Assembly (NCBI GenBank): GCA_964016885.1
Contig: OZ024747.1
Span: 23,622,001-23,686,000, forward strand
Source: Eledone cirrhosa
Taxonomy: Eukaryota
Direction of reading: 5' to 3'
Length of the DNA stretch: 64,000 nt
Positions 1 to 63,092 of this stretch are shown here, piece after piece. Position 1 is the stretch's first letter. Each line of letters begins with the position of its first letter. The position numbers and the translations under genes were made by a program. The notes beneath the pieces are model-generated. The model was not told the origin of the DNA, did no database searches, and saw nothing but the letters and a program-made list of their open reading frames with translations.

Positions 1-412
1 CAAAGGGCCAGAGTAAATCTATGGAGAACTACATCATTCTGATGTCTTTTGTGAACTGATGTAAACTGCCTTAGATGGCCAAGGGCAGACTATTTATGAA
101 GATAGCATATCTTCTGACAATCTACAGATGACCTCTAGAGAACCATTTCTCCAGACAATCAATTATTATGGTAGGGTTTAAGTATGGACATTGGAAGATG
201 AACAGTAGTGTATCATAAAAGTTAAATGATCTGGCACATATACATATTCATCCAAAAATGTTGTATTGTTTTCATTATCAAAGCATCCTTGAATTACCAC
301 TAAATCCTCATCCTCATTGTGACATCATGACCAATGCATTATTTACTTCCAGTATTTTTTTGTTTATTTACACCATGCTAAGATGATTATCATGTCCTCT
401 TGATAATTGCAC

Positions 413-597
413 AAAATATTTTAACCAATCATGGTCTCTAAATCATTGCACATCAAAATATTTTAACCAATCGTAGTCTCTAAATCATTGCACATCAAAA
501 TAGTTTAACCAATCACGGTCTCTAAATCATTTCACATCAAAATAGTTTAACCAATCACGGTCTCTAAATCATTGCACATCAAAATATTTTAACCAAT
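413..597. repeat. 42-bp minisatellite, about 4.4 copies
   Basis: Unit aaaatattttaaccaatcatggtctctaaatcattgcacatc. Confidence 0.9.
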
Positions 598-712
598 GTT
601 GAAGCCTCACCAAATATTTGCTGCTTCTTTTTTCTCTGTTTTATTTTGTTGTTGTTTGGGGATTTTTTTAAAAGCTATCGACTGAAACATTAAACTCATC
701 TGTTTCTTACAT

Positions 713-881
713 CAGTGGTTCCCAAAGTGGGTTCCACAAAGGAGTGTCTGGGGTTCTGTGAAAAAGAAGGTAGAGGAGTATATTTATATTAAGACCATAT
801 AACAGTATCACACTTTAGGGTTCCCCCGAAAGTTTCTGAACCAAAAAGGGTTCTGCATTTGAAAAAGTTTGGGAAACCCTG
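713..881. mobile_element. hAT-type MITE
   Basis: TIRs CAGTGGTTCCCAAA / TTTGGGAAACCCTG, flanked by an 8-bp near-TSD tcttacat/ccttacat. Confidence 0.8.
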
Positions 882-1077
882 CCTTACATTATAAAATTAA
901 TTACTTTTTATTCCTGCTTGTTTTTGATGCTTCTTTTTCCTGATTTTTATTTTTCTCTATTTGGGGAATGGGGTTATCATTAAAATATTGGTGTAAACAA
1001 TACCTCTGGATTACCCAGGATTTAACTTCTATAAATACAATTCAAACCTATCCGAAAATAATCATTTGCCTCTACAT

Positions 1078-1826
1078 TTGTATGTATTCCTAGACCCGTA
1101 ACTATTGGTAATTGTATGTATACATGGACCTGTAACTATTGGTAATTGTATGTATTCATGGACCTGTAACTATTGGTAATTGTATGTATACATGGACCTG
1201 TAACTATTGGTAATTGTATGTATACATGGACCTGTAACTATTGGTAATTGTATGTATACATGGACCTGTAACTATTGGTAATTGTATGTATACATGGACC
1301 TGTAACTATTGGTAATTGTATGTATTCATGGACCCGTAACTATTGGTAATTGTATGTATATATGGACCCGTAACTATTGGTAATTGTATGTATACATGGA
1401 CCTGTAACTATTGGTAATTGTATGTATACATGGACCTGTAACTATTGGTAATTGTATGTATACATGGACCCGTAACTATTGGTAATTGTATGTATACATA
1501 GACCCGTAACTATTGGTAATTGTATGTATATATGGACCCGTAACTATTGGTAATTGTATGTATACATAGACCTGTAACTATCGGTAATTGTATGTATACA
1601 TGGACCTGTAACTATTGGTAATTGTATGTATACATGGACCTGTAACTATTGGTAATTGTATGTATACATAGACCTGTAACTATCGGTAATTGTATGTATA
1701 TATGGACCTGTAACTATTGGTAATTGTATGTATACATGGACCTGTAACTATTGGTAATTGTATGTATACATGGACCCGTAACTATTGGTAATTGTATGTA
1801 TACATGGACCTGTAACTATTGGTAAT
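1078..1826. repeat. 34-bp minisatellite, about 22 copies
   Basis: Unit ttgtatgtatacatggacctgtaactattggtaa, contiguous with no spacers. Confidence 0.95.
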
Positions 1827-2588
1827 CACTGAAAGAATACAATTGAGCACATCCCTCTTCAGGTGTGAACATGGCTGATTTCTTTCAGAGAAGGAGAGAG
1901 AGTATTAGAGAAGTGAAAAATAGATAGGTAAGAAGAATTAACCCCACTACTTGACTGGTACTTTGTTTATCAATCTTGAAAGGCTGAAAATCATAGTTGA
2001 CCACAATGGGATTTGAACTCAGAGTGCAGAGGTTCGGAATGAATATTGCAAAACTTTCTATCCGACGGTCTAACCACTTGACTAATTGACTGCCAACACC
2101 TCTACATTTCTTCTTTTTCATCTCCTTTTTCGTCTTCACTTACTTATTCCTGAGAAGGTTGTGGGGTTAAATCCTCAAACACACCTTCAATTGATCCAGC
2201 TGGATCCTCAAGCGAGACCAGTCAAGCTTCCATATCTTGCATTTGTTAAATGATTTCTACCCAATCTAGCTTTACATTGAATTTTTAAATGCTTTTCTTT
2301 TTTTAGTACCAGTTATATAACAAGGTTGATTCAATTAGCTATGCCATCACTTTCCTGCAAAAACTGGACTTTGTGTCAAATTAAAAGTATACCCTAGCAA
2401 AAAAAACACAGGCAAAGTGGTGTTATATAATGTTTTCTGAAATCAAAATGTGCCTGGGTATATTTTCTGTTATAACTAGATATTTGCCTTTTATCTTAAA
2501 AAAAACCATTAATATCACAACTTGCTATTTCTTCTCTACATCTATATACATCAGTGTAGTTTGTGTATGTCTCTGTTTAAGATATATA

Positions 2589-2679
2589 CCGTATTTCCTG
2601 GCACCGAAGACGCTTCATCCTTGAAGACACACCCTAATTTTAGGGAAAGAAGTAGCGTCTTCAACGCCAGGAAATACGA
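2589..2679. mobile_element. Small pogo/Tc1-type MITE
   Basis: ta|CCGTATTTCCTGGC..GAAGACGC ... GCGTCTTC..GCCAGGAAATACG; about 25-bp imperfect TIRs. Confidence 0.7.
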
Positions 2680-2833
2680 CATATATGTGTGGGTGTGTGT
2701 ACCACAATAAATGTATTGGATAATTTTTGTTGTTGTAAATCAATATTTATATATAAATGTATAGAGAGAGATGAATTTCAAATTGATTGTTTATGAATCC
2801 TTCTGATATTTTCTATTTATTATATTTATTTAG

Positions 2834-2959
2834 GCATCTGGAGTTGAGAAGAAAGAACATTTATATAAGATTCTTGTTATTGGAGAATTAGGAACAGGGA
2901 AGACAAGCATCATCAAACGTTATGTCCATCAATTCTTCTCTCAACATTACCGAGCTACT
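2834..2959 (+). CDS. RAB32: Rab32/38-family small GTPase, first visible coding exon (G1/P-loop)
   Basis: After ttag acceptor reads ASGVEKKEHLYKILVIGELGTGKTSIIKRYVHQFFSQHYRAT (126 nt, phase 0); donor is GTATCCTT (U12-type). The upstream start exon was not identified. Confidence 0.93.
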
Positions 2960-3529
2960 GTATCCTTCATATTGCTACATTATTTTTTTATGTTTAGAAA
3001 GCAAACATGTATGCATATATATATATACATACACATACATACCTTCACACATTCATGTATACATAAATACGTACATTTACATATGGTGGCTGCCAACTCG
3101 TTTTTGAGTACGGCCACTACTTTATATCCATGTAGGAGAACCCCTACCGATGCGCTGTGACTTTTTAGTCCAGCCAGCAACTTGAAAACTCTGGTACAAA
3201 CACTACACCTGTGACAATTATTGACACATAGTGCTGGGCCCTTGGTACCATGTGACGACAAGTGCAGAGAGATCTCCAGATATAAAGAAATGCCTGTGCC
3301 GTGAAGCTTTTATAGTGAGCAAAGGCACTGCAAAAAGCCAGTCCCACTCTCTTAACCAAGATGATATTTACCAAAAAGAAGAACAAGTCAACATCATTGG
3401 ATACCATCAGAGTTGCAGGTGTTACATCAGAGTTTTCCTTCTCCTAGAATTCTGCCTTGACAAAGGCTAAGGGGTCATCTCTCCTGGTGATTTTGGATGG
3501 CCATTGACTCTTAAGAGCTCCTTTGCCCT

Positions 3530-3948
3530 TTACATATACATACACACATTCACATATACATACATACCTACACACATTCATGTATACATACATACATACA
3601 TTCAAATATACATATATATATATATATATATACACACACATACATACCTTCACACATTCATATATACATACATACATACATTCACATATACATACATACA
3701 TAATACCTACACATTCACATATACATACATACACATTCACATATATATACATACATACATACACACACACATTCACATATACATACATATATACATACAC
3801 ACACACATTCACATATACATACACACATTCACATATACATATGTACATACACACATTCACCTATATATACATACACACATACATACCTACACACATTCAT
3901 ATATACATACATACATACATACATACATACATACATACATACATACAC
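3530..3948. repeat. Compound (CATA/CA/TA)n microsatellite
   Basis: Direct inspection. Confidence 0.9.
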
Positions 3949-4155
3949 AGACAAAAAATGGCCGTGATATCTGGCACCTTCAAATTTGCAAAACAATCTT
4001 GTGATTCAAGGGATGACAATTTCTTTTCTTTTACAACATTGCCGCCAGGAAGGTGGCCGGTCAAATATGTACTCGGAATTAATAGTAAGAGAAAACATAC
4101 ATATGTACATACATGTATTACATGTATGTGTATATATGTGTATGTATGCATGTAG

Positions 4156-4186
<31 letters not shown>

Positions 4187-4831
4187 ACGAATGGGAGAAA
4201 ATGGCTGAGGAGCGAGGAGACGTTTGATCAAGTCAGGTAGTGAACACTTTGAAACTCGTCGAGGAGAACACCTTACACTGAAAAGGAAGGTAAGGAAAGG
4301 AGACTGTTCTGAACTGCCTGCTGTTGAACATCGTCTGGTTTGCCAGCAATGTGGTTGAGTCTGCCTGAGTAAAGCTGGTTTGACTAGATATGAACAAAGT
4401 CATATCAGTAGACCTCAGGTAGATTATGATCTGAGAAGGTGCAAGGAATGTGGCATGGGAGGTCTCAAAAGGCACATGAGAACACACAGCCAGAACAAAA
4501 CAATGGAAAATCCCGGAGGAGCCTACACTTGTGTGTGCCAGAGGGTGCAACTCTTTGGCTGGTTTAAAGAGCTACATTCGTGCCTCACATTGTTTAGCAT
4601 TTTATCAGGCAATGTGTGCGTGTGTATGTATGTATGCATGTTTGTATGTTCATATATATATGTGTATGCATGTAGGTATATGTAGACATGTATATCTGTA
4701 GGTGTGTGTGCATGCATGCGTGTGTGTGTAACCATTTTATGTCTATCTTCCATGCTTGCATGGGTTAGACATATATTTCTTAGATAGATAGATATATAAT
4801 TCTTTGTATACAAAGAAATGTATATCATTAT

Positions 4832-24324: not shown

Positions 24325-25847
24325 TCATCATCATCATCATCATCATTTTACGTCCGCTTTTCCCTGCTTGCAAGGGTGGGACGGGTCTTATTCAGCACAG
24401 CATCTCTCCACTCGTCACGGTCCCTCGTCATCTCCACCGTGAGCTTCAATGATCTGAGGTCTGTTCTCACCACCTCCGCCCATGTTTTTCGTGGTCTACC
24501 TCTACCACGTCTTCCTTCAACTGGCATTTCCTGGCACTTCTTCACCCATCGGTCATCCTCCATGCGCATCACATGTCCATACCACCTCAGTCTCCTCTCC
24601 CGTACACTACATTCTATCCCTCTCAGACACAGTTTCTCTCTCAACACATTTATGCTGGGTCGTTCACGCACATTTACACTGCACATCCAACGGAGCATGC
24701 TTGCCTCATTTCTCTCCAGCCGTCGCATATCTTCTGCGGTTGCTGACCATGTCTCACTACTATGCAGCATCGCGCTCCTCACACAGGCATCATACAACCG
24801 GCCTTTCGTATGCAGGGAGAAACCCTTCTTCGTCAACAGAGGAAGCAGCTCCCTAAACTTCTTCCAACCCGTCCTTATTCTAGATACTATGGCCTCGGAA
24901 CACCCTCCTCCCATGCTAATCTGATCTCCTAGGTACCGGAAGCTATCCACCACCTCTATAGCGCCCTCTCGCATTTGAAAAATGTGTCTATCAGTGCGAC
25001 TTCTACTGTCTAATTTCCCTGTACATCTACTGCATACATATTTCTCCCTACCTGTTAGTTTGCCTGCTATCCCGCTACATCTCTTGTGTACCCAGGACCT
25101 GCATTGTGTGCATTTTATAGAATTTATGCCAGTTCCTTTTCTGCATATCGAACATGGCCATTTCCCTGACGGAATCAGGGTTTTGTCCTCTTTTCTACTT
25201 ATCAACACTTTTGTCTTAGCTAGATTTACTCTCAGTCCTCTTGCTTCCAACTGCTGTTTCCATAGCCGGAATTTATTCTCTAGCTCCTCTACTGATTCTG
25301 CCATAAGAGCCAGATCGTCAGCATAGAGAAGTTCCCATGGACAGCCAGTCTTAAACTCCTCTGTTATGGCTTGGAGGACTATAATGAACAAGAGCGGGCT
25401 GAGGACCGAACCCTGATGTACTCCTACTTGTATCTGGAATTCCTCACTAAACTCCATTCCTACCCTGACTTTACTGAGAGTACCTCTATACAAAGTTTGC
25501 ACTGTCCTCAAGCCATTCCTCAACACCCAGCTTCCTTAGGGACCACCAGATGACAGATCGGGGTACCCTATCAAAGGCCTTCTCTAGGTCAACAAAGGCT
25601 AAGTATAGTGGCTTATTCTTCTCTAAGAACCTCTCTTGCATTTGTTTCACCAAGAAGAGGGCATCTGTTGTACTCTTCCCAGGCACAAAACCAAACTGCA
25701 TCTCATCTAGTTGGACTCTTTCCCTAATTAGTTGTGCTAAAATCCTTTCTGCCACTTTCATAACCTGATCTATCAGTTTTATACCCCTATAATTGCTCCT
25801 CTCCAAAGCATCCCCTTTACCTTTGTAGCAATTTATGAGAATACTGC

Positions 25848-25889: not shown

Positions 25890-27130
25890 AAAAAGGAGGC
25901 CTGGAAATGTCATGATGAGAGACTGATGAATGTGGAGAACGAATGGGACAGAGAAATTACCACCAGTAGACCCGACAGAGGGACTAGCTATTGAGATTGA
26001 CGAATATAGTGTACAAGAGGAAATGAATGGTAAGGATGCTGGACCATCGGGGATAGTTGCCAAGATGCTGAAAGCATCAGAAGTAGGCACTAAACTAGTT
26101 GCACGCATCATTAATCAAGCTATATATGGTGGTGTCATACCCAAAGACTGGTGCAGCATTATTCTGATAAATTGCTACAAAGGTAAAGGAGATGCTCTGG
26201 AGAGGAGCAATTATAGGGGCATAAAGCTGATGGATCACGTTATGAAAGTGGCAGAGAGAATATTAGCGCAACTGATTAGAGAAAGGGTCAAATTAGATGA
26301 GATGCAGTTTGGTTTTGTGCCTCAGAAAGGTACAACAGATGCCCTCTTCTTAGTGAGGCAACTACAAGAGAGGTTCTTAGAGAAGAATAAGCCACTATAC
26401 TTAGCTTTTGTTGACCTAGAGGAGGCCTTTGATAGGGTACCCCGATCTGTCATCTGGTGGTCCCTAAGGAAACTAGGTGTAGCGGAATGGCTTGTGAGGA
26501 CAGTGCAAGCTATGTACAGGGGTGCTGTCAGTAAAGTGAGAATAGGAATGGAGTTTAGTGTGGAATTCCAGATACAAGTAGGTGTACATCAGGGTTTGGT
26601 CCTCAGCCCGCTCTTGTTCAGTATAGTCCTCCAAGCCATAACAGAGGAGTTTAAGACTGGCTGTCCATGGGAACTTCTCTATGCTGATCTGGTTCTTATA
26701 GCAGAATCAGTAGAGGAACTACAGAATAAATTCTGGCTATGGAAACAGCAGTTGGAATCAAGAGGCCTGAGAGTGAACATAGCTAAAACAAGTGTTGATA
26801 AGTAGAAAAGAGGACAATACTCTGATTCCATCGGGGAAATGGCCATGTTCGATTATAGGAAAGGAACTGGCATAAATTCCATAAACTGTACGCAATGCAG
26901 GTCTTGGGTACACAAGAGATGTAGTGGGCAAACTAACAGGTAGGGAAAACTACGTATGCAGTAGACATACAGGGAAAGTTGGCAGTAGTAATCGTAGTGA
27001 TAGACACATTTTTCCAATGCAGGTGGGTTCTATAGAAGTGGTTAATAGCTTCCAGTACCTAGGTGATCAGATTACCATGGGGGGGGGGGGGGGGTCTGAG
27101 GTGAACACTGACGAGAACTCTAGGATAGGA
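25890..27130 (+). mobile_element. RTE-clade LINE fragment of the same family, opposite orientation, truncated at both ends
   Basis: ORF 25930-26805 carries the same RT motifs (YADD reduced to YAD), with further frameshifted sequence to about 27130. Confidence 0.93.
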
Positions 27131-31325: not shown

Positions 31326-31472
31326 TCACTTTTTCCACTTTTCTTGGGGATGGTACTCTGTCATTGGTTTTCCGCCAGTTCCACACGTACCAATTCCTAC
31401 CCTTCCATTGATGTTATCAGGAGAGGCAAATATGGATCTCTTCACTTTTCCCTTGTTTGTCTTGGAAAATGT
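31326..31472 (-). CDS. SMNDC1: SMNDC1 terminal coding exon
   Basis: tttcag|TFSKTNKGKVKRSIFASPDNINGRVGIGTCGTGGKPMTEYHPQEKWKK*; SIFASP...GRVG.GTCG...KPMT is the SPF30 C-terminal signature. Total 244 aa. Confidence 0.95.
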   Translation of the reverse strand, partial: TFSKTNKGKVKRSIFASPDNINGRVGIGTCGTGGKPMTEYHPQEKWKK

Positions 31473-31844: not shown

Positions 31845-31971
31845 CTTTACATTGAAATCAAGCCATTTATTTTTCTCTGTTTCCCTCTCCTCCTCAAGTT
31901 GTTTCATGCGCTGGGCTTTCTTCTGGGCTTTTTTCCGTTTTTTCTCACGTTCCTCAGCAATCAGATCTTTC
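31845..31971 (-). CDS. SMNDC1: SMNDC1 coding exon 6 (basic/NLS region)
   Basis: aatag|G-KDLIAEEREKKRKKAQKKAQRMKQLEEERETEKNKWLDFNVK|gtgaga. Confidence 0.93.
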
Positions 31972-33686
31972 CTATTGTGAAATTATTTTTAATTTCAGAA
32001 TAAGCTTCAAATATATTAATATAAATTACTCTATATTTTTTAAACTAAAATAATATGAAATCATCATCGTTTAGTCTGTTTTCCTTGCTAGCAAGAGTTG
32101 GACATGCTGTCAGAGACAGGTCAGTATTTAAGACGAGCCAACATACAATCACATGCTGAACCAAGTGCATCTTATTGTGACACCAACACTAGGAAAGTTA
32201 TGTCTTGACACAGCTGAAGAATCCTTCCAACCCTTTGTTTGGTAGGTTTACTATGGCTGAATGCCCATCCTATCACCAACCACTTTACAGAGTGTACTGA
32301 GTGTGTTTATCATGTCTATGGCACAACTAAAGAGTCTTCCTAATCATGTTAAATAATTTTCTTTTAAGAATTGTAATCAGGTTTTATGACATAAAACTTT
32401 TTTAAAAAAATACAAAATAATTACAGATTTAGTTCCTTAGAAAAGTAACTTCAAATCAACTTACTTGTAATCTTTTGTTGGAAGTTAGTAATGAAAGTGG
32501 CTTTATTTCAAACATTTCTAAAGATCTATATGAGAAATTTTAATATATATTGACTACCAGTATTCACTACCATATTGTGACTGAAAATATTTAACAAAAA
32601 CCAAAATTGGAAAGAAAGTTTTGATATATTTGATATCTAATTTTGTTTTTTAAATATCAGTGCTTTTTAAACATACTATTTTAATCAACCAATTTTTGAG
32701 AAATCAAAAGAAAATACTACTAAACCAAAATAGATTTTATATTTAGTTTTATATAATACCCATTTAGTCTTTCTTCTGATGCTAATATCGAAACTTTAAT
32801 TTTAACCATTTGTAATTCCAAACCTTTAAGATTCTGAACATCACTATCATCATCATCATCATTTTACGTCCACTTTTCCCTGCTTGCAAGGGTGGGACGG
32901 GAACTGATTCTGGCTTGATTTCTACAGCTGGATGCCCCTCCTAACACCAACCTCATTTACAGTGAGTGCTGGGTGCTTTTTTTCCGTGGCACCTCCACGA
33001 CCACTTTGCAGTGGAATGATAGGGACCCCAGTCCTTATCTCATTTCTACAGCTGAGTAAACTGGAGCAATGTGAAATAAAGTGTCTTGCTCAAGGAAACA
33101 ACACATCACCCGAACTGAGAATTGAACTCACAACTTTTCGATTACAAGGCCAATGCTCTAACCACTAAGCCATGTGCCTCCATCTATATCTGCTTAAAAA
33201 TTGTTCCAACACTTTATGCATATACAAAATTTTTAAATCACAGTAGATTAAGTCATCATTTAACAAGCAGTTTCCCTGTTAGCAAAGGTTGGATGGGTTG
33301 TCAATAGACTCAGGTAGAAGTATGGACCCCACGGATGGGCCAGAAGCCTACATATGTTCCTGCACTGAACTGAGTGCTCAGACAAACCAGTGGCTTTTAA
33401 CTTACATATGATCCTATACATTGAGTGTATTTTATCGTGACACCAGCACTAGGGAGGTTATGTTATTGACACAGGTGAAAAGTCTTCCCGGCCCTTTATT
33501 TGGTTGATTTTCTACATCCAGAAGCCTTTCCTATTACCAACTACATAGATTAGGTCACCAACACTAGGGAGGTCAGCTGAAGATTTACAAATAATTGTTT
33601 ATGCTTTGTAGAATATATACAAATATATACAGTGAACCATTGGCTGACCAGTTGAAGTCCTCTTAGAAAACAAATAACCAACTTAC

Positions 33687-33769
33687 TTTGACTTTAGTCG
33701 TTTCGCTTCAGGGCCCAATCCATCAACACCATGATCATTATCAGCATCAGATGGTTTTAATAAATTTGC
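33687..33769 (-). CDS. SMNDC1: SMNDC1 coding exon 5
   Basis: ctctag|ANLLKPSDADNDHGVDGLGPEAKRLKS-AA|gtaagt; phases consistent with both neighbouring exons. Confidence 0.85.
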
Positions 33770-34230: not shown

Positions 34231-34318
34231 CTGTGTGATGTCTGTATTTCCATAACCCTCAAATGTTACAGTACAAGTTCCATCAGGCAATATCTCATCA
34301 ATTTTCGCTTCATAGAAC
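34231..34318 (-). CDS. SMNDC1: SMNDC1 coding exon 4 (Tudor domain)
   Basis: aaag|G-FYEAKIDEILPDGTCTVTFEGYGNTDITQ|gtaaat; aromatic-cage residues Y, F, Y and the YGN motif. Confidence 0.93.
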
Positions 34319-35049
34319 CTTTAAAAAAAAAAATTAGGTTATCTTAAGAACTAACAAACTGAACAATTTTCTATATGTAAAACACTGAGAAAAGACTTGG
34401 GAAGACAGCTTAGCTCTTGAGATCTAAGACAAATATATCTAGCTGTCACCTTGCCTGGTAACAAAGATTGCATTTTTCCTCTTAGTATCAAAATTCAATT
34501 TTTGTGAAATCAATTCTTTTCCCCTTGAAATTATGTCCCATCTTTTTTGAGTCTCTAACAATTGCTATTTTTTGTTTTCCTGCTTGAATCGAAATTCATT
34601 AACACTATTTTCAGATATATCATTCAATACATCACCTATTTTATCTAAATTCATATCATTGGCTCACTTGAATTATTTTTTGTAATAGAACTACTTTTCT
34701 AATCTATTCGAAAATAAAGACTTATTTTATATAAATTGTTTCAAAATTATCTTTTTTAGTATCCAAGGAAACTAATGATCTGCATTGGTAAACAATACTA
34801 AAATAAGTTTGTATTCCATAAGCAGAGTTGAATTTTGACATTTCAGATAGAGTCCATCAGTTAATGAAATGAAAATGTGTGTCAGATTTAAATATCTTTG
34901 TGGGTTTGAAAAAAGTACTGGCACAAATGAGACCACAAAAATACTGCAATATAGCCAGAAACAGTAAAGACATCCATACCACATCACCCTTCGTATGAGA
35001 TAACAAGGGATGTGTTCAGATTTTAGATGGTCCAGAAGGGAGCAAACCA

Positions 35050-35653: not shown

Positions 35654-35829
35654 TGTCCATCTACAGACCAAGGAGCTTGACAAGCATCTCCAGCACTCCA
35701 AGTTGTCTGAACAGCTTCTGCAGCTTGAGTGTCATTTGTTGATACTTCTTCACCATTGCCTTCATCAGCATTAGAACTTCCAGAAGTTGGACCAATGTTC
35801 AACAGCTGCAGAGTTAGTTCAATCACCTC
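35654..35829 (-). CDS. SMNDC1: SMNDC1 coding exon 3 (start of Tudor domain)
   Basis: cttcag|EVIELTLQLL...WSAGDACQAPWSVDG-CA|gtaagt. Confidence 0.93.
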
Positions 35830-37710
35830 CTGAAGAGACAAAAAAAAATGTCAGATCAAACAAACCCCACAAAAATAAATACATGAATAAAGCATACAAA
35901 GAAATGTTAGAGGAAAGGACTAAAATCACTGACAACAGTCATTAAAATCCCTGAAACAAGGCCAAAAGAGGTAGGGTACACAACATACAGAACAAATATA
36001 TCAGCTCAAGTCTTAACTGACAGGCATTCTCCAATTTACAAAAACAATTTAATAATCAAATATTTATTTCTTCAAATTTAATGGCTTGAATGCTTAAATT
36101 ACTAATAGTAAAGAAAATAAGTATATTATCTAAACTATCCAACTTTTTATTTCCAACCATATTTAAATATTTTTCTAATAACCTAGAGATCTCTTCTATT
36201 AATTGCTAATGAGTGTAGTTAATAAAAAGAAGCTATAAAATTTCTGCAAAGGAATATTTATACCTAACCAATTCTTTTCTGGTATATTTAACTAACATGA
36301 GCATTTCTTTAAAAGTCTCAGCTACACATCTATAAGCTTTTAAGAATTCACAATAGGTTAGCTTAAAATCATTCAATTGTCATACCAGGAAGGGCAAAAC
36401 TAATTCTAATTAATTTGACTTAAATGAAATGCTTATAAAAGCATATATTCAAATTTGTGATCAAGTTATTGCAGTAAAAATAGTGTAAATGATTGTTAAT
36501 ATCAAGGATTCAAAGAAAATCACAAAACAGTCATCTCAAAGTTGCTGGCTGTGTTAAACAAGCTACCAAAAAGCTCCAATTTTGAAGATCTTTAAATGAT
36601 GCTGTTTTGCTCAAGATGTGGTAATATACTAATTACTGCCCACAAGGATGTATAAAGACATCAAAAAATATTTACATGAATCACTGTATAATTGAGGTGA
36701 CCATACAAGATGAGTCTAAAGGTGCGCTTTTAACAATTCACACAATTCAATTAGTCCAAGGGAAGCAATTCTCATTAGTGTTGAACTTGAGAGAAGCAAT
36801 TCTCGGTGTTGAACTAGAAGTATCTAAATGTCATTACTGATAATTTCTTTCAACAAAGGCCATTTTTCCTCGTGAGATGAAAATAGAACAAACTGGTGAG
36901 ATTACAACTCAGAATGTAGCAGAACAAACATAATTCAATGGCTTTAGTTTGATACTAATCATTCTGCCAACTGGTAATAAGAGGTAAAACAAATTAGTTG
37001 AGAAAATGTATTGGAAACTGATATAAAATTCATGTGGATAGAAATTTAATAGCTATTGTTTCCAAAAACCACACCATATAACTGAGACAATAGAGTTCCT
37101 TTGTAGATAATGGCCACAACGAAAAATAATTGAAACGCAAATTTGAAATGCATAGATTTTGCTGTTAATTAAAAATTACAGATGATTGAATTTGTAATAA
37201 TCCAATTTAGATCTCAGTTCTAGAATATATTTACTTGTCATTAGCTGCTATCTAATTACTCTAAGCTCTATTAGATGATTAATATTTTCAACAATCTAAT
37301 ATTTATCTGCCATAATGTAGTACTAAATTAAACTTCATAACTAAACAGTAAATTTAAACATAGTAGTAATACAGAAGATACAAGTGAAACGACTGTGTCA
37401 ATGGGCTGGCAATCTATGAGCATTCTTCAATTTATTTGCTGGTATATGCTTTGTTATCAAGAGAAATTGGTTCCTAGTAAGAAGTGTCAAGGAACGTTTT
37501 TAGATGCCGACATGTTCCCAAAACACATGAAAACAGGGAAAAATAAACAAGACCAAATTTAATTTAGACTAAAATTTTATATTAAAAAAAAAGTATATAA
37601 GCAAAACAAGATGGGAAAATGTTCCATTTTTCACATGGTGTTGTTTGTGTCAATATCCCACCACAGAAGTGTAACTAGTCAAGTATTCAAACTGTGGAGA
37701 GTATACTTAC

Positions 37711-37773
37711 TACTCAAGGATCACCGTCTGTGAGTCTTTCAAAACATACGAAGAGCGTGTATCGCCCCTTCAT
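37711..37773 (-). other. SMNDC1: Candidate poison (PTC-containing) cassette exon in SMNDC1 intron 2
   Basis: Minus strand: UG-rich tract, ctaac/ctaat branch-like sites, tatttctag|63 nt|GTAAGT. In the SMNDC1 frame it reads MKGRYTLFVCFERLTDGDP* (TGA at 37716-37714). Confidence 0.65.
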
Positions 37774-39769
37774 CTAGAAATACAAGAGTCTGAGAACAAA
37801 TTAGATTGACTCAACCAACATGGACTTAGAGGGCTAGGTTAGGAGGAGCAGAAGACATACATACAACACAAGACAACAACAGCAATGCAGATGTTGTATG
37901 TTGTAACAAGCAACCATACACATACATACTGATAATTCATCAATGAATATGAGGCGACTACAATCTATATAATAGAGATGAAATATACCCATGAACTTAG
38001 AGCAAAAGGAATAAAATTTGCTTATAATTTACAATTTTAAACAGATTACATTTTGTTGAAGTTCTTTTGGATGATTTAAATCAAATAAAATAAACTGAAC
38101 ATCTTAAATTATAAATTAACAAAGTGTTAGCTGCTTGGAATGTAAATGCATGTTCATTCTTAAACCTGAAGGTGATGTTCAATTTTGTTTATAAATAAAT
38201 GTTGATTAAAACTAATTAAGTATATATGGTGGAAGAAAAGGGAGACTGCCACATGGTTTATAGGTACATATTTTAATCACATACTTATTTTGATTGTACA
38301 AACAAACAATTGTTGTTTTCTAATAATTGCCCAATACAAACCCAAATATAGAAGTATTAATTATTAGTCTAACATTAAGAGGTAAAAATAAATATTGTTC
38401 AAGTGATAGATGTTCAAAATTTATAAATTATCTAATTATTTTCAAACGTGATAATTACAACCTGGATAATCATCATCATCATCATTTCAGTATTTATGAA
38501 TTAGTAAAACTCTTATCAATGTAAAAAAACAAATTGTAAATTTTATTTACAAGATGTTAAAAATTTTGCACAAGAGATCTAACTGAAAACCAAAAGGTAA
38601 ATCCAATGCTTGGAACTGGATATTAAATGCTCATGATATTAATCAAGATACATTTCAAATTTATAACTACTAACTATTAGGTAAGTTTTATTTCTGAAAT
38701 ACATTTATTCTTTTACTGGTTTCAGTCATTTTGATCATTGTGAACCCAGCACTTAATTCAGCTTGGTACTAATTTCGTTGAAATTAGTACCAGGCTGAAT
38801 TTCGTTCCTCATAAAGGAGCACAACTATATATGTGTGCACAAAATACTCAGTTCACCTTATAAGGTGATTGGCATTAGGAAGTGTATCTAGCCGTAGAAA
38901 ATCAAACAAGACATGGTTGCCCTAACTGTTTGGCTTAAAATGACAGTCCATCTAAACCATGCAAGCATGAAAACTAGATGCTAAATAGTGGTGGTGGTGA
39001 TGTGCGATATGTAAACACAGTTGTCCAGTTTTCATCTAAATTCCACTTACAAGGCACAACAGAAGACACTTGTGCAAGGTGTCTCACAATATGATTGAAC
39101 CCAAGGTATGTCAAGTGAACTTCTTAACCCCCAGGCATGCCTATACCTTTTACTATTAATTGTTTTTACATATTTAATCTAACTGTATCAGTTGGAGAGG
39201 AAGGCATGGTACTAAAATATAATTTTAAAATGTCAAATAATGAAGACACTAAACTATTTTCTCAAAGTTTCACTCTTGATACCAAACTGCTGGAAGCCAC
39301 CCTTAGTTCTATGATACAAAACTGTTCTAAAGGTTTTAAATTTATCTACAAATCTATCATAATTTTATGAAAAAAACCTTTAAGTTATGTCTCACACACC
39401 AGCTTAATGATGAAAAAGTTATATTATTAAATTTCTTCAAATTATTTTCAGAATGATTTGAAAATTCATAAGCAATCATCATCATAACATCTGCTTTCCC
39501 TGTTAGTTGTTAGTAGATGGAGTTGGTACTCAAAGTGAAGGTACTAACCTCATGGTGGGCTGGGAGACTGCATCCTGTTTATGCTCCTGCACCCTATTGA
39601 CTACATTTTATTATGACTCCAGCATTAGGGAAGTTATGTCCTTGACACAGCTAAAGAGTCCTCCCAATACTTTGTTGGGCAGGTTTTCTATGGTTATGAT
39701 GCCTTTCCTATCACCAGTATCGTTTTATTAAAAAAATGGTAATGAAAGGGTTAAGAGACATGCTATATT

Positions 39770-39897
39770 CCATTTGCTTTAGACCCCAGTAGAAAAGTAA
39801 TAGTATCTTCATTAGCTTTAGACCCCAGTAGAAAGTAATGATATCTCCATTTGCTTTAGACCTCAGTAGAAAAGTAATTATATCTTCATTTGCTTTG
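39770..39897. repeat. About 39-bp tandem repeat, 3 copies
   Basis: Unit cattWgctttagaccYcagtagaaaagtaat..tatct. Confidence 0.8.
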
Positions 39898-41829
39898 TAA
39901 GAAATATTTCTTACATTAGCACAAGATCACAAATTTATAGAAGGAAATGAACAACCCAAGCATATTTAGACAATTAGCAGCAAAAGGGTAATGACCAAAA
40001 GAATACAATCGTGAATACAAGCGGCCAAAATAGGATTACTGCAAAGGGTCTTTGGAGTAATGTTACTCAATAAAATTTGTAACTCAAGGTAGAGCCACTA
40101 TTTCTCCGAATTGAGCGATCACAGCCCTGTTACTATTGGCATGTGGTTAGAATGTCTCAGGAAAAAATCGCTAGACAGATTTTACGGGCAAAACCAGCCA
40201 GCAAGAGACCCAGGGGTAGACCCCAAGCAAGATGGTTTGATAACATCCATGAGCTTGGCTGGTCACGCTTGGGGAGCCAGCCGGATCAGTTGGAAACGGT
40301 TGCTTCTGACAGGAGTGTTTGAGGAGTCTGCCCCAACGACCCTCTTAGGAATAAGTAGGCGAAGAAGAAGCAGCAAAAGGAGACAATTACTTTCTTTAAA
40401 AATTATTTCATTTTCAAAGACCCCTGGAAACAAAAAAGTGCCAAATATTTTTAAAATTTAGAGAACTACTAAGATACAAACAAAATATATATCATAGTCG
40501 CCTCATATTTAAATTAACTAATATAGTTTCATAGCTATTAAGTATTTTTCTTAATCAATATACACTGAATAATTATAAAATAAAAGGAAAAAAAAGAGAG
40601 ATAGAGATATCACAGGCACATTGCTCCCATAAAACCTACCAATGCCAAATATATGAAACCTAGCATTTAATAAGCGCTAGTTAATATAATAGATAAATAT
40701 TAATACAGTAAATGAAACAAGATAAATATAAAATGTAGCCTACTAACGTAAGTTTTTTTTTCGAGATATGAAAAACATTAAGTATCTCAAGTAATTTTTT
40801 GAAGTCATTAATTAGAATTCATAATAACCATGACTATTTCATGCTGTGTAGGTGAAAAGATGTCTAACACTTAAAAAATGGCTTCTATCAAAAGCATTAC
40901 TTTCTTCTTTATGGTATAAAATTTATTAGATTTTTAAAACTTTTTTAACGACTGTTAGCTATTACAAATCATCCCTAGTTTCCACAGATTTTATTGTTTC
41001 ATTAGTAAAAAGAAAAAAAAAAAGGATTTAGACCCTGATTTAGAAATGATGAGGAGGGTGATTTTGGGACACCTTGTGGGAAAAACAAAGTCAGTCAAAG
41101 AATGGAGAAACTGATGGGAGTCAACAGCCATCCAATGTGTACACATACTTGTACATTATGATTATGTATGTACTTTGTAATGGAGTAGTATGTGTGCTTT
41201 TTTTTATCCAGAGGGTTATACTGGCAGGAGTCTGGTAAATTTAACTATATTAGTAAATCCAACTATGCTAGACAAGCAAATGGGTAGGAGCCAGATTTAA
41301 CCTGAATCGTTGGTATAGTAAACCACAATGACAAAAAATCCCACCATGGGATGACTGTGTGGTGGATGTATGACATCAGCAGAAGAACCAGAGTTAAATC
41401 AACAGTGATTCATACAAGATGTTGAGCAAAAGAACATCATGGTAGGATCAAATAATTTCATTAAGTAAAAGAATTCAATATGCATTGACGTGAAACACTG
41501 GATACCCTTCCCAAGTCCAGCTACCTTACAAGGTGTACTGAGTGTGTCTTTTCGTGGCAACAACACTACCACTTTACAATTATTCTTAAATCATAATATA
41601 AAGACAAAACTTCTACTGGAGGATAGAATAAGCAACCAAGCCTGATATCTTTGGATTTCTGTATTTAAAACATCAGGGATTATGATTCCCCAAAATGTTA
41701 TCAAGTTTTGGTCTGGGGTCAAAATGGAAAATTCGGCTGTAGAACAATTATTCAAAGGTTTAGATGATGTCAACAAGGATTTTGCTAGTTTTTGCTTGCC
41801 TTCATAGTCAAACAGGTGGTACACATTTT

Positions 41830-42110
41830 ACCCAGCTTTTCTCTCAGCTCATCCAATGCTTCATTTCTCTCTAATTGCCTTCATCTTCTGCATTTACTGC
41901 CTACGTTTCATTGCCATGCAACATCACACTTCTCACACAGGCATCATAGAGAAAATCCTTTTCTTTGTTAACAGAAATAGCCCCTTAAGCTTTTTCCAGC
42001 CTGTTTTTGCATTGATCTCACAAGCCACTCCTCTATGCCCAGTTTCATTAAAGACCACCAGATAACAGATCATGACACTGTGTCAAAGGCCTTCTCCAGA
42101 TCTAAGACAA
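41830..42110 (-). mobile_element. Highly deleted RTE LINE remnant
   Basis: Patches similar to the 24.7-25.6 kb sequence (cacacaggcatcata, tcaaaggccttctc, gaccaccagat). Confidence 0.55.
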
Positions 42111-43009
42111 AGTAATTCTATGCTGCAAGGCATGGTGTCTCATATCAACCATAATGTATGTTTGTTATATCTATCTTCATACTTAACTCTAAAATGTACA
42201 CACACATACATGATGCCTTCCAACCCCAAGGTCATGGGTGCTAACCCTACATGACCTTGTAAATAGTTATTTCAAAAAAAATTTCTCATATTTAATCCTA
42301 TATGACATTTGAATATACATGCTTAACATTTATGTAGTTATATCCTAGAAATAAATTATTAAAATGTCAGTAATCAACATAAACTATAGGTTTCTTATCA
42401 AAATGCAAATTTCCCAGTTTGCAGGATTCTTCATATATTCGGCATCCCTGGTATATAGATATATATATAGATATATATATATATATATATGGCACTAGTT
42501 CACTAGTACATATATATAACGTGTATGTGTGTGTTATATTTCAAATTATTTGGGTGATATTTAGTGGTCGGAGGGAATTAAAAATTGAATAGTGACCAAG
42601 CTTCACTCAGAGCAGGGAATTAAAAACTTAAATTTGTAGAATCTTTTGTTTCACCCGATGTGTAAAACACAGAACTCTTAAAATTAAAAAAAAATTACAA
42701 TTAGAGTGTTAGAGGTGAACTTTTTCCAAAATGGTAACAATTTTCTTTTTTAATTCATGTAATTTCATAAACTTTCCCATACTAAGATATCACATCATTA
42801 ACTACTTTGTTTTATTTTATTAATAAGGGGAAACAGTAAACTAAATGAATAAAGTATCAAATTTAATTAAAGGAGACAGATAATATTTTGGTAAGTCTAA
42901 AATACTAAGTACACTGACTATATTAAATATAATTGGCAATGGTAGAAAATTTATTAGTGCAACAAAGGTTTTACAATGAAGAAAAGAGGTATGAAATCAC
43001 TGTACCAAC

Positions 43010-43075
43010 CTGTAAATCTTTCTTCAGCTTGAGAAGATCCAAATTATCAGGATCAGATGTTAAAGAAGCTTCCAC
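43010..43075 (-). CDS. SMNDC1: SMNDC1 coding exon 2
   Basis: tttag|VEASLTSDPDNLDLLKLKKDLQ|gttggt; matches the conserved SPF30 N-terminal helix. Confidence 0.92.
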
Positions 43076-45066
43076 CTAAATGAAAATTCTTCAATTAATT
43101 AACTGCAAGTCAGGGCAAATAAAATTTTAATAATTTCAATAAAAATGTTTAAATTATCCACACATCTTAGTAAAGACTCCCTTTGGGCCCGAATGACCAC
43201 GAGATTTGCACCTAGAAAGTTCCCCTCCAAGCACAAGTCTGGAAGACCAACAGTCACCCATGCATACTAGTCTACCCTCTCCACACAACCAACGTTGTTC
43301 ATGGGAAAGGCAAAGACCGATACAGCTTGGCACCAGTGACGTCGCTATTCATATCTACAGTTGAGTAAACTGGAGCAACATAAAATAAAGTGTCTTGCTC
43401 AAGAATACAATGCACCAGCTGGTCCAAGAATTGAACTCACAACCTCATGATTGCAGGCCCACTAATTTACAGTATTAGGTACCCCTCCTTCCCATGATAG
43501 ATTATTATATGACAATATAATCCAAATTAAGGTTAACATGAGGATGGGGAGGAGAGCTGCGACGCTCACAATGAAGTTTTAGTTATTGTTGACGGCTCGT
43601 CTTACCAAACTGATGCCCCTGGTGGGGGTGCCGCTTATTCCAGCGGCTTAGCTATGCTGTAATATGGACTTATGGACGTATCAAGTAATGTACGCGACAG
43701 TGCTTGATTATTCCAGCGCCTTAGCATCGCTAACACCTGCGGTAATGCTACGAGTGAATTGGCTCGTCTCGAATATTATTGGGAGAAAGTACCAGTAATG
43801 TACTGGAGTAATTGCTGGCCTTGTGCCAAATGTAGAAACAATTATTAGGAGAAACTCTAGCGCCTTTGTGGTGGCGCGTAATAGTGTCTTCTCCCATTTT
43901 TTTCTCTATTTTTGTTACTTAAATATAAATTGTGTTTATTTGTATGTATTCTATTGAAATAAATACATACAAATAAACAATTAACTTCGTACTGTCTTAA
44001 CTGTTCAGGCTAAAGGTTGAAATCGTATACCATCAGGATATCTATCTTAACTAACAGTACAAATAATAGTAATTTAAGTACGGGATTCCCGAGCAAGTAG
44101 CAATGTGAATAAGAGGAAATACACAACGAAGCTGTTAACTTTGCCTTTCATCCTTACGGGGTTGATAAAATAAAGTACCAGTAATGTACTGAGTTAATGA
44201 TGGCCTTGTGTCAAAAGTAGAAACAATTATTTACTTAATACAGACGAAGGGTTGAGTTAAGGGGAGTACTTAAAGTCAATTAGATTTGTGTGTACTAGTC
44301 AATCACAAACAATACACGGTTTATCACGATAGTTACGGTAGGACTGCCTAAAATTTTTTTTTTTTCATATTTTGGTGGAGTTTGAGAACACTTTTTTTTT
44401 AAAGTTACAAATTACATAACTTCTATTTTTAAAAAAACATTAAATTTCCGTGGAGGGCTGACCTGTGAAGTGTGAAGTGAATCGACATCAGAACAAACAT
44501 TAGTGGACTAATTAAAAGACGGAGTATAATACACGGAAACAACATTCTGAATTCGTTATTTTCATCTTTATATGTCAATATATATTTTTTATTTGGTTTC
44601 CAAATTGGAAATGAAATCCAGGTCTAAATAAACTACCATAAAAATTAAATAAGTCACCCTCCATTCAAGAGCTTTATCAGAAAAATTGGAGGGAATGATG
44701 AAGACAATAAAAGACCAAACGAAAATGTCTAAGACAATAAAAAATAACACGTGTCGTGAAATAATTACATTGAGTTATTTAATGTTTGACAATGTTTTAA
44801 GAAAGATAAGTAAAAGATTGTTTATTCACTAAGTTTTTGACATCAATATGAAATCTAATAACACAAACACACCATTAGTTCGTTTGTTCACAATGCGTAA
44901 CAATAGAAATTGACATTTTAAAGACACAATAGAAGAGGAAGCAGAGTAAAAATAGAAGACAATAGGATAATCGGTATGCATCGTTAGAAATAACATAGAA
45001 GTTGGATGTATAAACAACTATACATTAGAAATAATACGGTTTTGAAATGTGAAAGTAAAAATATAC

Positions 45067-45114
45067 CTGCTGAAGCTGAGATTTGTACAAGTTTAGTTGC
45101 GTCTCGTCCGCCAT
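45067..45114 (-). CDS. SMNDC1: SMNDC1/SPF30 coding exon 1
   Basis: aaaATGGCG start; MADETQLNLYKSQLQQ|gtatat. Confidence 0.9.
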
Positions 45115-49724: not shown

Positions 49725-49882
49725 TCAACTGAAATTACTGTGGGTTCTCTCATCTATCAATTCATGATTATTGTGGCCATTTTTATCCTCTGTTGACTGG
49801 TGTAAACAATGTTTTGCACTTTCAAAACTTGGGTCAAGATTAAGAGCATCTTGCATGTCTTTAATAGCTTCATCAAAGTACC
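49725..49882 (-). CDS. TTC32: TTC32-like terminal exon
   Basis: ttacag|GG-YFDEAIKDMQDALNLDPSFESAKHCLHQSTEDKNGHNNHELIDERTHSNFS*; total 153 aa. Confidence 0.88.
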
Positions 49883-50789
49883 CTGTAATTTAGAAAACTA
49901 GTTTAGTAGTAATAAATTTAAGGTAAAAAAATTCTATATTCATTGACAAAATTAATAGGACATATTACATACCTAAATACCATCTATTGATTTTTTAATG
50001 AATTTATATTTATAGTCTACGATTTAAATACTGATATGAATGAATGATTAGCTTTCAAAAAAATTACAGATTTGGAATTTTTTAACAGCTTAATCATAAG
50101 AATGTGTATTGAATTGTAAAAGTTAAAATAACCTTTATTTCACTAATTCTCCTTTTAAAAATGATAGATTATGTATGGGTTATAGCATAAACAAAGCATA
50201 TATACTACATGTGTTACAGGATAATCTTGGACTACATACAACTTTTCTGTTTAAATGAAAAAGAAATGACATTTCCTAAAAAGATATTAATGAAAGGAAC
50301 CTAATCCAGTAAAAAAATCACTACCACCAAGAATAGATGTATGGAGTATTGTAGAATAGACTCACCTTAACTTTAGACACACATAAGAAGTGAATTTGTC
50401 TCATCCCTCATCAAATTATCCCTATATCTCTTTTTGAACTATATATACAATTCAGAGTCCACACCCATGTATTGAATACAGTTTTGCATACATTGAGAAC
50501 TTTCCCATAATTCTGCACACTTGATAAGAAGTTATAAAAAAAAGTCTAAAACTTTGGATTAGCAGGACAAAAATTCATTTTTCTCCCAAGGTTCTTTGGT
50601 ATCAGGCCATAGCAGGTTCTTCAATGAATTTGTTTCTAGTGATTTCTCCCCAAGTCTAAAGTCTAATACAATGAAATTAAATCTAAGACATTGGCTTTTT
50701 ATCTCCAAGGTTTGTAAGACATAAAATCAACAAACCAGTAATAATTAAAGAAAAAAGATTTTTAAAACTTTTTCAGGCAATAAACTCAC

Positions 50790-60533: not shown

Positions 60534-61847
60534 TTTCAAGGGATATGGGGTTTGTGATTCCTATTAGGCACCTCAGATCATTTTTTTTTACATCTCTATG
60601 GATAATTTACTTGATTTAACAGTTATTACAGTTATTTTCTGCACTTGGGATTCTCTCAGTTCCCATATATGTGTGTGAGTCATTAGACTGGCTATCTTAG
60701 GGTATCCTTTTGAAGGAATTTAGTCGATTATATCAACTTCAGTGTATATTTTTTCAGTCTGGTACTTATTTTATCAACTTTTTTTTTCTTAAATGCTAAG
60801 TTATGGGACATGAACAAGCAGCATATGTAAACACAGACACACACACACCACATATGTACATCATCATCATCAGCATTATTTTTATGTTGACTTGTCTCTG
60901 CTGGTATGAGTTTGGACAGGACATTTTCAGGCAGTGTTTTACAACCAGATGCCCTACCTAATACCGACTCTTTTAGTCGCTTCTTACGGCATGCAGGGAT
61001 ACAGTGTACCTATTTTAAACCGAATACATACAATTGTATAAGTCGCACACCCATGACTTAATACATATCACTCCCCACTACCATTGCTCCCTAGAATCTA
61101 CTCCCACTGTCACTATACCCTTCCCTCTATACCCAGAATCACTTCCACATCACCACTTGAACCCTTACATCGAACCTGTCAATCCCCACCTTTTGTTACT
61201 TATCCATGATATACCTAGCGTCCTTTTAATTCCCCAAAGGTAGTAGGGAGGTTTTTGGTTATTGACTCAACTGAAAGTTGAGTCAATAACCAAAAACCTC
61301 CCTAGTGCTGCTGGTGCCAGTTTACCCTGTAAGGTGGTTGGTGATAGGAGGTTGAAAGGAGTCTTTAGTTGCGTCAAAGATACGGCAACCTTTGTCTGGG
61401 CATATCTTAATTTATAACATGAAAGTCAATGAAAAAATATATTTCAAGTTATAGCCTTCCACACTACAGCAAGATTTTCAGGAATGCAATACTTTCATAA
61501 TGACAGGGTGGCTATATTGTTTGTTTGTTTCTTTCTTTTTTGTTTCCTTGTCATTATCTATAAACAAGCTAAATTTTCTTCGAAATAAAAATGAAAATAA
61601 AATATTTTGTAATTTTTCTTTATTTATTTTTGCAGATTAAATAATAAAGAAAAGAAACAAAAAGGAATTTGATGTGGCCCGTCTCTTTTGCTGTTCATCA
61701 TCATCATTTAATGTCTGCTTTCCCTGTTATCAGTGAGAGATGTATGAGCATATTACAACATACTTTTGTAAAACTTGCTTGACCTTGAGAAATAATCTGT
61801 TTTACACCTATTAAGTTTGAGTGGTAACATCAATTTTTTCTTCTAAA

Positions 61848-63092
61848 ATGCTTTTCAGATGGAAGCTTTACTCAAACCAGCGAAAGTTAACTTTATCCAA
61901 ACTGATTATTTCATTCTTTCTAATTGTTGTAGTTATACAAATCACACACATAATTCTTTTATCAAAGATAAGAGGCAATTCAAAAATTGCTAAAAGAAAT
62001 GAGATTTCAGAAATGATTCAGAAAATATATGATTCCTATAAACTTGATTCTTCTGGATCTTATCACATGATTGCAAATGTAGCTCTGTGTAGTACTTGCA
62101 GCCCATCTTCATCTGTCCCTGTTCACAGAAAGTTTGATGTTACTGTAGTAACTCAGACATCACTCAGTAACTTACACTATATTGTCAAATTAGCAAATCA
62201 ATGGGCAGGTCCAGTATCTGTGACCATTTTTGCATTTGACAATTACATTGTTACAGCTCTGTTGGCAATTGCAGCTTTGCGGAAATGTAATCCAATTGTT
62301 TTAGAAATGGTATCATTCCATCTTGTCTATCCTTTGCAAAGATATCCAAAGAATCTTCACAACAATTATGACACCTCAATTGTATCTTGTGAAGATTTAC
62401 CTAATATATTTACTTCAAATGTTCCAAATTATAGCTTTGATAATATTCAATATCCTCATAATGTTCTAAGAAATTTTGCCATCAAGAATTCCAGAACTGA
62501 ATATATTTTTATGGTTGACATTGATATGCTTCCTTCCCCTGGACTAAGAAACAACTTTTCTGAATTCATTAAAGTTGCAGATACATTTTTGCCAAATTTA
62601 ACAGCTTTTGTTGTGCCAAGTTTTGAGTCAGAATTAAATGTCTCAATACCTGTTGACAAGAAAGACCTTCTGAAAAAATGGGATAATCAACAGATTCGTC
62701 CCTTTTATTATGAAGTCTGTTGGAAATGTCAGCAACATACAGACTATGAAACCTGGAGAGAAATTGATGGGTCTTATATGAAAGTAGCCTACAACATCCC
62801 TTGGAAAGACCCCTGGGAGCCATTTTTTATTACTCGACATTTTATGCCACTTTATGATGAACGATTTAAACAATATGGTTTTAACCGAATTAGTAATGTC
62901 TGTGAGTTACATGTTGCTGGATATACATTTAAGGTTTTGAGTAATGCATTTATTGTTCATCAAGGATTAAAAACAGCCACAAACTTCCACAGTAACAAAG
63001 TTAAAGAGTTGAATCAAAATCGCATGTTATTTCGAAAATTTAAAGAAGAACTGAAGACAAAATACCCATATTCAATGAAAAGATGTTATTAA
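61848..63092 (+). CDS. B4GAT1: Beta-1,4-glucuronyltransferase 1 (GT49 family, type II membrane protein), single-exon CDS, 414 aa
   Basis: N-terminal TM anchor (LIISFFLIVVVIQITHIILL), W.GPVSV, YPHNVLRN.A, DxD (VDIDM), WEPFF, YDERFKQYGFNRIS, CELHVAGY.F.VL.NAF.VH.G; first ATG at 61848. Confidence 0.92.
   Translation: MLFRWKLYSNQRKLTLSKLIISFFLIVVVIQITHIILLSKIRGNSKIAKRNEISEMIQKIYDSYKLDSSGSYHMIANVALCSTCSPSSSVPVHRKFDVTVVTQTSLSNLHYIVKLANQWAGPVSVTIFAFDNYIVTALLAIAALRKCNPIVLEMVSFHLVYPLQRYPKNLHNNYDTSIVSCEDLPNIFTSNVPNYSFDNIQYPHNVLRNFAIKNSRTEYIFMVDIDMLPSPGLRNNFSEFIKVADTFLPNLTAFVVPSFESELNVSIPVDKKDLLKKWDNQQIRPFYYEVCWKCQQHTDYETWREIDGSYMKVAYNIPWKDPWEPFFITRHFMPLYDERFKQYGFNRISNVCELHVAGYTFKVLSNAFIVHQGLKTATNFHSNKVKELNQNRMLFRKFKEELKTKYPYSMKRCY

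Follow-up and report, generated by a model that had tools for sequence, protein, structure and literature searches.

The SMNDC1 (SPF30) gene of the octopod Eledone cirrhosa carries within its second intron a short segment that probably is a genuine poison exon, whose action may be coupled to retention of the intron. The gene lies on the minus strand of a 64,000-nucleotide (nt) stretch of DNA (NCBI GenBank assembly GCA_964016885.1, contig OZ024747.1, positions 23,622,001 to 23,686,000), hereafter called the window, whose own numbering is used throughout. SMNDC1 intron 2 occupies positions 35830..43009 (7,180 nt, phase 0, between the codons for KKDLQ and EVIEL), and the candidate exon positions 37711..37789. 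From our analysis as a whole it seems likely that this exon serves a feedback circuit coupled to nonsense-mediated decay (NMD).

Two acceptors and a donor delimit the candidate exon. The upstream acceptor gives a 79-nt form (37711..37789), which is frameshifting, has its stop codon at 37741-37739, and uses the same acceptor as the cuttlefish gene model discussed below; the downstream acceptor gives a 63-nt form (37711..37773), which is in frame with exon 2 and stops at 37716-37714. Both forms would close at the donor GTAAGTAT (37703..37710), directly after 37711. An internal donor-like GTATGT (37744..37749) may also be used; a cut at C|GTATGT (37750/37749) would leave, starting from 37789, an exon of 40 nt that shifts the frame or, starting from 37773, one of 24 nt that keeps it. 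Upstream, on the same strand, are a branch-like CTAAT (37800..37804, with its A at 37801, 12 nt before 37789 and 28 nt before 37773), a third acceptor candidate at 37833, a branch-like CTAAC (37838..37842, whose A at 37839 is separated from acceptor 37789 by 50 nt and three AGs), and a UG-rich tract (37850..37930) that may bind splicing regulators.

Intron 2, both acceptors, the donor and the UG tract lie where a preliminary description of the window had placed them, and its proposal that the 63- and 79-nt forms both lead to nonsense is upheld by translation. Exon 2 joined to the 63-nt form encodes 57 amino acids (aa) ending MKGRYTLFVCFERLTDGDP-stop, with the stop 477 nt before the last exon junction, and exon 2 joined to the 79-nt form encodes 54 aa ending TLVFLDEGAIHALRMF-stop, with the stop 502 nt before that junction; five exons remain downstream. 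Across the 40-, 63- and 79-nt forms the reading frame ends after 54-57 codons, at a distance of 463-502 nt from the last junction, and in seven of the eight acceptor-donor combinations a stop precedes the Tudor domain, 463-564 nt upstream of that junction. In two respects the preliminary description needs amendment. First, its lead form was the 63-nt exon, for which we found no cross-species support, whereas the acceptor that it placed second, 37789, is the one with a cross-species match. Second, the GTAAGT donor at 37711 is present as described but loses its status as the sole donor, the internal GTATGT (37750) being another candidate.

The candidate exon stands above chance because of a match in cuttlefish. 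There are two SMNDC1 models for Sepia (Acanthosepion) pharaonis, the normal CAE1268576.1 (245 aa) and a longer CAE1268573.1 (315 aa), whose contigs are equal in length, and the longer one continues after KKDLQ with TLVFLDEGAIHALRM, 15 residues identical to the window translation from acceptor 37789; the exon 2-acceptor 37789 junction is thus present in one Sepia gene model. A tblastn comparison of CAE1268573.1 against the 64-kb window places residues 38-53 at 37792-37745 with E=1.3e-4 and 16/16 identities, one of them a Q translated from the acceptor CAG; this stretch follows the match to exon 2 and precedes the one to exon 3. The core common to octopod and cuttlefish (37750..37789, minus strand) comprises at least 13 codons plus 1 nt and at most 15 codons (to 37745), and only the 13 codons are certain because the Sepia model may leave the element at the internal C|GTATGT. 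The probability of finding 13 given residues anywhere in intron 2 is 7e-14, and the next best 13-mer in the six frames matches at 6/13. Among 23 intron segments, the core scores 47.8 bits versus at most 14.7 elsewhere. No octopod counterpart was obtained for the control, a 73-codon piece of Sepia-type intron DNA that precedes exon 3 (P0220; best score 20.1 bits, median 15.6, 23 segments). The core identity (13/13) also exceeds that of exon 3 (33/59, p=0.003, a comparison picked afterwards). As read through the protein, the candidate exon is conserved above its flanking intron, over its 5′ 40-45 nt only, and the expectation in the preliminary description that it would be conserved across species is borne out, between octopod and Sepia, by these 13-15 identical residues. 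The octopod-decapod split is dated to about 240-245 million years ago (PMC13076209).

The conservation is independent of how the Sepia model was built, and the junction claim depends on the model. The end of an unspliced Sepia-type intron (P0220) corresponds to the rest of the CAE1268573.1 insert but diverges just upstream of that rest. It thus appears that in the model the 5′ part of the element is spliced to an acceptor some 55 codons ahead of exon 3. Exact patterns of the core gave no match in metagenome and prokaryote collections, which hold few cephalopods, and among the best 150 matches of a HMMER search with CAE1268573.1 none has its best stretch over the core. The exon had been expected to be invisible to annotation, and this fails in so far as the Sepia gene model uses the 5′ part of the segment.

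Splice motifs by themselves are weak evidence here, and are within chance. The donor GTAAGTAT has 8/11 matches to the U1 consensus, and SMNDC1's own donors score 6-10. Intron 2 contains two GTAAGT sequences, and the other one is paired with an acceptor of equal pyrimidine count (39182-39051); under a 12-pyrimidine filter four acceptor-donor pairs pass, three at the 37711 donor and one elsewhere in the intron. The UG tract, whose limits were chosen by eye, has 16 TG in 81 nt, a number reached by none of 89 non-overlapping 80-nt intron windows (maximum 14). The 79-nt segment has four CpG versus 0.48 expected, although four are also reached by one other intron stretch (40344-40259). The existence of a second AG...GTAAGT pair of equal motif quality in the same intron is what speaks for a chance pseudo-exon or a repeat fragment. 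No conservation evidence was found for that second pair (39051-39182), whereas the candidate exon has the cuttlefish match at 7e-14 and is single copy, in keeping with the preliminary description, in which it resembled none of the window's repeats: the segment has one match in its own genome, and the DNA-type runs have a depth of 16-23 in its bin, similar to the unique flanks, versus 1e5-1e6 in nearby repeats. None of the six tandem-repeat rows in the window overlaps it. Chance or repeat origin is largely refuted and we consider it extremely improbable.

The segment might instead be a conserved intronic element with no role in splicing, such as an enhancer or a structured or small RNA, used as an exon by the Sepia gene predictor by accident. 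Exon use in Sepia indeed rests on a gene model, and no junction was seen in E. cirrhosa. Yet the match begins exactly at an AG acceptor, directly after exon 2, and the location is the very intron known for a poison exon; moreover, Rfam gives 13 matches at a limit of E=5, none overlapping the segment, whose folding is unremarkable (z=+0.78). We regard such an element as quite improbable.

Scarcely more probable is that the segment is a protein-coding alternative exon, translated either in an isoform of the 315-aa Sepia type or as an 8-aa microexon (37773-37750). The identity is at the peptide level, the Sepia model keeps the frame, no stop interrupts the 24-nt combination, and two models from the spider genus Trichonephila have a 72-aa in-frame insert at the same junction. 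In the window, however, the matching frame hits a TGA at codon 17, and the microexon frame differs from the matching frame. From acceptor 37789, none of the 12 AGs in the last 300 nt of intron 2, in combination with any of three donors, restores an open frame, and there is an in-frame stop 8 codons before exon 3. The Sepia in-frame product is therefore without an octopod equivalent, and the remainder of the Sepia insert, which simply reads through intron sequence, matches nothing in the octopod. The product probably reflects a nonsense transcript that was forced into a gene model. The spider models deserve separate mention: Trichonephila clavata and T. clavipes have two SMNDC1 models each, one of which carries the near-identical insert at KKDLQ|EVI, unlike the cephalopod core in sequence, which suggests that spiders may have alternative exons in the same SMNDC1 intron.

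Evidence on transcripts comes from contigs of four runs of one study, none of them recorded as RNA, and contigs drop rare forms. Three runs (X1-X3) pass straight through the introns and are DNA-like. The fourth, X4, behaves as RNA: the positions of three contig ends (43038, 35803 and 31942) and the length of one overhang (127 letters) agree in 4/4 cases with the predictions for spliced beside unspliced molecules in a 31-mer graph. Six listed X4 contigs cover 6,360 of the 7,180 bases of intron 2, and RNA with unspliced intron 2 thus exists beside spliced forms. In the Logan contigs of the Sepia cluster, P0003 and P0070 continue from the last part of intron 2 into exons 3-7 in spliced form. The unspliced state of intron 2 in X4 and in these decapod-type contigs was not foreseen in the preliminary description. 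Part of intron 5 is likewise unspliced in X4. Two observations are not counted as evidence: X4 leaves one bin of intron 1 uncovered and covers one of intron 3 only thinly, and proteins P0068 and P0071 begin at the exon 3 GTG, as would fit an upstream in-frame stop in a message that includes the exon. A search for truncated products gave one match in shorter proteins (P0072, with a normal spliced N-terminus) and one of similar length, but was weak, missing most normal homologues. The UPF1 zinc-binding domain is present in the octopod's own genome.

These contigs also bear on a role as a decoy exon, a concept known from intron 4 of erythroid SF3B1. In a decoy, the conserved splice sites would stall the splicing of intron 2, nuclear retention would be the main control, and the exon would seldom be included; this is compatible with the poison-exon explanation, but as a full account we think it rather unlikely. 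It draws on the RNA-like behaviour of X4 and its extensive cover of intron 2, on the decapod contigs P0003 and P0070, on the clustering of weak acceptors with two donors, and on the NMD-immune, intron-2-retained form in Arabidopsis (PMC12393150). On the other hand, exon 2 is joined to the acceptor in the Sepia model, the unspliced contigs may be ordinary pre-mRNA (as the partly unspliced intron 5 illustrates), gene parts cannot be ranked by contig depth, and an alternative acceptor before exon 3 explains P0003 equally well.

Several findings weigh against the segment being a poison exon with NMD-coupled feedback, or against particular parts of that explanation. First, the matches listed for the four contig runs, in which repeats filled the table, show no junction on either side of the segment, and the X4 contig spanning 35803-38703 is unbroken across the expected junction cuts (37763/37746 and 37778/37739), with the proviso that contigs drop rare forms. 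Second, the cuttlefish support consists of one gene model in one species, at the protein level only; that model stays in frame and bypasses the GTAAGT donor, the shared stretch is the 5′ half only, and the genome of Sepia pharaonis was re-annotated in later work to cut duplicated models (PMC13076209). Third, the core peptide was found in only one of 221 collected proteins, and its 13/13 identity does not exceed that of the whole gene (201/244). Fourth, the 24-nt combination (37773 to 37750) is in frame and has no stop, and branch-point spacing favours 37773 over 37789. Fifth, the octopod element has no local likeness to intron 2 of a vertebrate-type SMNDC1 locus (L043, described below), the best score of 24 being equalled by 120 of 200 shuffles. 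Finally, in human cells an alternative site, exon 4a, and not the cassette, was judged to be the larger part of the autoregulation (PMC12398788).

With these points taken into account, we still favour the poison exon, and propose decay and feedback because of the analogy with the published mammalian and plant circuits. Exon 2 would be joined mainly to acceptor 37789, and the 3′ end of the poison exon would be set by either the GTAAGT (37711) or the internal GTATGT (37750). The message that includes it would be sent to UPF1-dependent NMD. High levels of SMNDC1 would raise inclusion, as published for mouse, and the protein would thereby shut down its own message. RNA that retains intron 2 may form a pool from which either the productive or the poisoned message is later spliced, as published for Arabidopsis.

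The identity of the host gene, given as SMNDC1 in the preliminary description, is confirmed by homology and by the Tudor domain. Octopod SMNDC1 lies on the minus strand in seven coding exons, which add up to an open frame of 244 aa: the first coding exon (45067..45114, 16 codons, with the ATG at 45114), exon 2 (43010..43075, ending KKDLQ in phase 0, with the RNA-like contig end at the predicted 43038), exon 3 (35654..35829, starting EVIEL, where the Tudor domain begins, with the RNA-like contig end at the predicted 35803), exon 4 (34231..34318), exon 5 (33687..33769), exon 6 (31845..31971), and the coding part of exon 7 including the stop (31326..31472). The protein is identical at 236/244 positions to SPF30 of Octopus bimaculoides and of O. 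vulgaris/sinensis, at 217 to that of Argonauta and at 201 to that of Sepia. The Octopus homologue contains the SMN Tudor domain (PF06003) above cut-off, and its best match in the PDB is the human SPF30 Tudor domain (4a4f). Exon 7 has one match in its own genome. By full-length homology to named SMNDC1 proteins, the host is an SMNDC1/SPF30 gene, and it occupies a single locus.

The octopod host intron is orthologous in position, by codon and phase, to vertebrate SMNDC1 intron 2, a question that the preliminary description had left open. The comparison was made through a metagenome scan for SMNDC1 that yielded 50 loci, most of which look spliced or intron-poor and have no bearing on intron position. 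One of them, L043, is a five-exon gene of vertebrate type, whose Tudor start matches the human PDB chain and which agrees by eye with the peptides encoded by mouse reverse-transcription PCR primers. It has an intron (373-4227) at KKDLQ|EVIEL in phase 0, after a 120-nt first coding exon, and its next intron agrees too. An AG 17 nt before its exon 4 is the counterpart of human exon 4a, which fixes the exon numbering and identifies the intron at KKDLQ|EVIEL as intron 2, the one known for the cassette exon. Four mouse guide sequences match L043 at just 13-15/20, and L043 may therefore not hold an exon of the mammalian type. Among the other loci of the scan that look genomic the intron position varies: it is exact in L044 (17-420; 237 nt), lies 2 nt earlier in L038 (246-560), and is absent in L047, L049 and L050, of which L049 has the window's intron-1 position.

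Other features of the window are of less immediate relevance. Within intron 2 there are a weak Rfam match to a C/D-box small nucleolar RNA on the sense strand at 39448-39490 (28.8 bits versus a cut-off of 45), which is probably due to chance, and a 39-nt tandem repeat of 3.3 copies at 39771-39896. A tRNA-like Rfam match (33114-33173) falls within very high-copy sequence (32800-33200; also 43400-44250), which is consistent with tRNA-derived short interspersed elements in introns 5 and 1. Reverse-transcriptase open reading frames (PF00078) at 24348-25526 (minus strand, with a PHD-finger match) and 25930-26805 (plus strand) are pieces of retroelements of the long interspersed type. An uninterrupted 423-aa open reading frame at 61821-63092 (plus strand) matches Glyco_transf_49 (PF13896, E=1.6e-98), and an open stretch at 49728-49889 (minus strand) resembles an exon of an upstream gene, with no Pfam match.

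The circuit itself is already known, and the coleoid element would be an invertebrate addition to it. As the preliminary description stated, an SMNDC1 poison exon is reported for vertebrates and plants; in PMC11357089 human, mouse, chicken and Arabidopsis are reported to share its intronic position, and the exon is described as raised by cycloheximide and by over-expression of SMNDC1. The claim made there is one of conservation across kingdoms, with the other species queried remaining undecided, and the vertebrate cassette has been argued to be late-arising (PMC12398788). We found no case of an invertebrate SMNDC1 poison exon in the openly accessible literature, a gap that is filled by the conserved element in the corresponding intron of coleoids. 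It makes testable whether the exon is old or only the intron slot. A tentative proposal, which we hold to be somewhat less probable than not, is that SMNDC1 intron 2 is an ancient regulatory slot, whose position and held-back role date from early eukaryotes while the poison exon was rebuilt from unrelated sequence in vertebrates, plants, coleoids and perhaps spiders; the coleoid version would be a multi-site switch (two to three acceptors and two donors), frozen for about 240 million years, that chooses between retention, decay and productive message. For cephalopod biology the element provides a predicted NMD reporter with exact junctions, and its discovery illustrates that odd isoforms in public annotation can reveal hidden regulatory exons.

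The octopod element is most directly compared with the vertebrate intron-2 cassette exon. The two are in the same gene and, by codon and phase in L043, in the same intron; inclusion of either would lead to a frameshift or stop before the Tudor domain, and both are conserved beyond the surrounding intron. They differ in length (about 40-79 nt here versus about 200 nt in human, from products of 500 versus 700 bp; PMC12398788) and in the place of the stop, which lies inside the 63- and 79-nt forms in the octopod but in exon 3 in mammals. NMD and autoregulation are shown in mammals and predicted here, and comparison with the L043 intron gave no sequence likeness. Human exon 4a, an alternative acceptor in the same gene, offers a second route to NMD (PMC12398788). 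The window lacks an AG at -17, which is present in L043, but two AGs that precede its exon 4 by 24 and 32 nt (34319-34350) would each give an immediate stop, recalling exon 4a. A broader parallel is with the ultraconserved poison exons of SR and hnRNP genes (SRSF3, TRA2B), which are non-coding exons in splicing-factor genes conserved for hundreds of millions of years; in the octopod, the conservation is seen as 13-15 codons through the protein. A further parallel is with intron 2 of Arabidopsis SPF30, in which several splice sites give nonsense forms alongside a fully retained form (PMC12393150; PMC11357089), and which is stated to lie at the same intronic position as in mammals (PMC11357089, from which the plant position is taken). 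The retained plant form is NMD-immune and is later spliced either way (PMC12393150), and while this later splicing is shown in plants, the unspliced intron 2 of the octopod may share the same fate.

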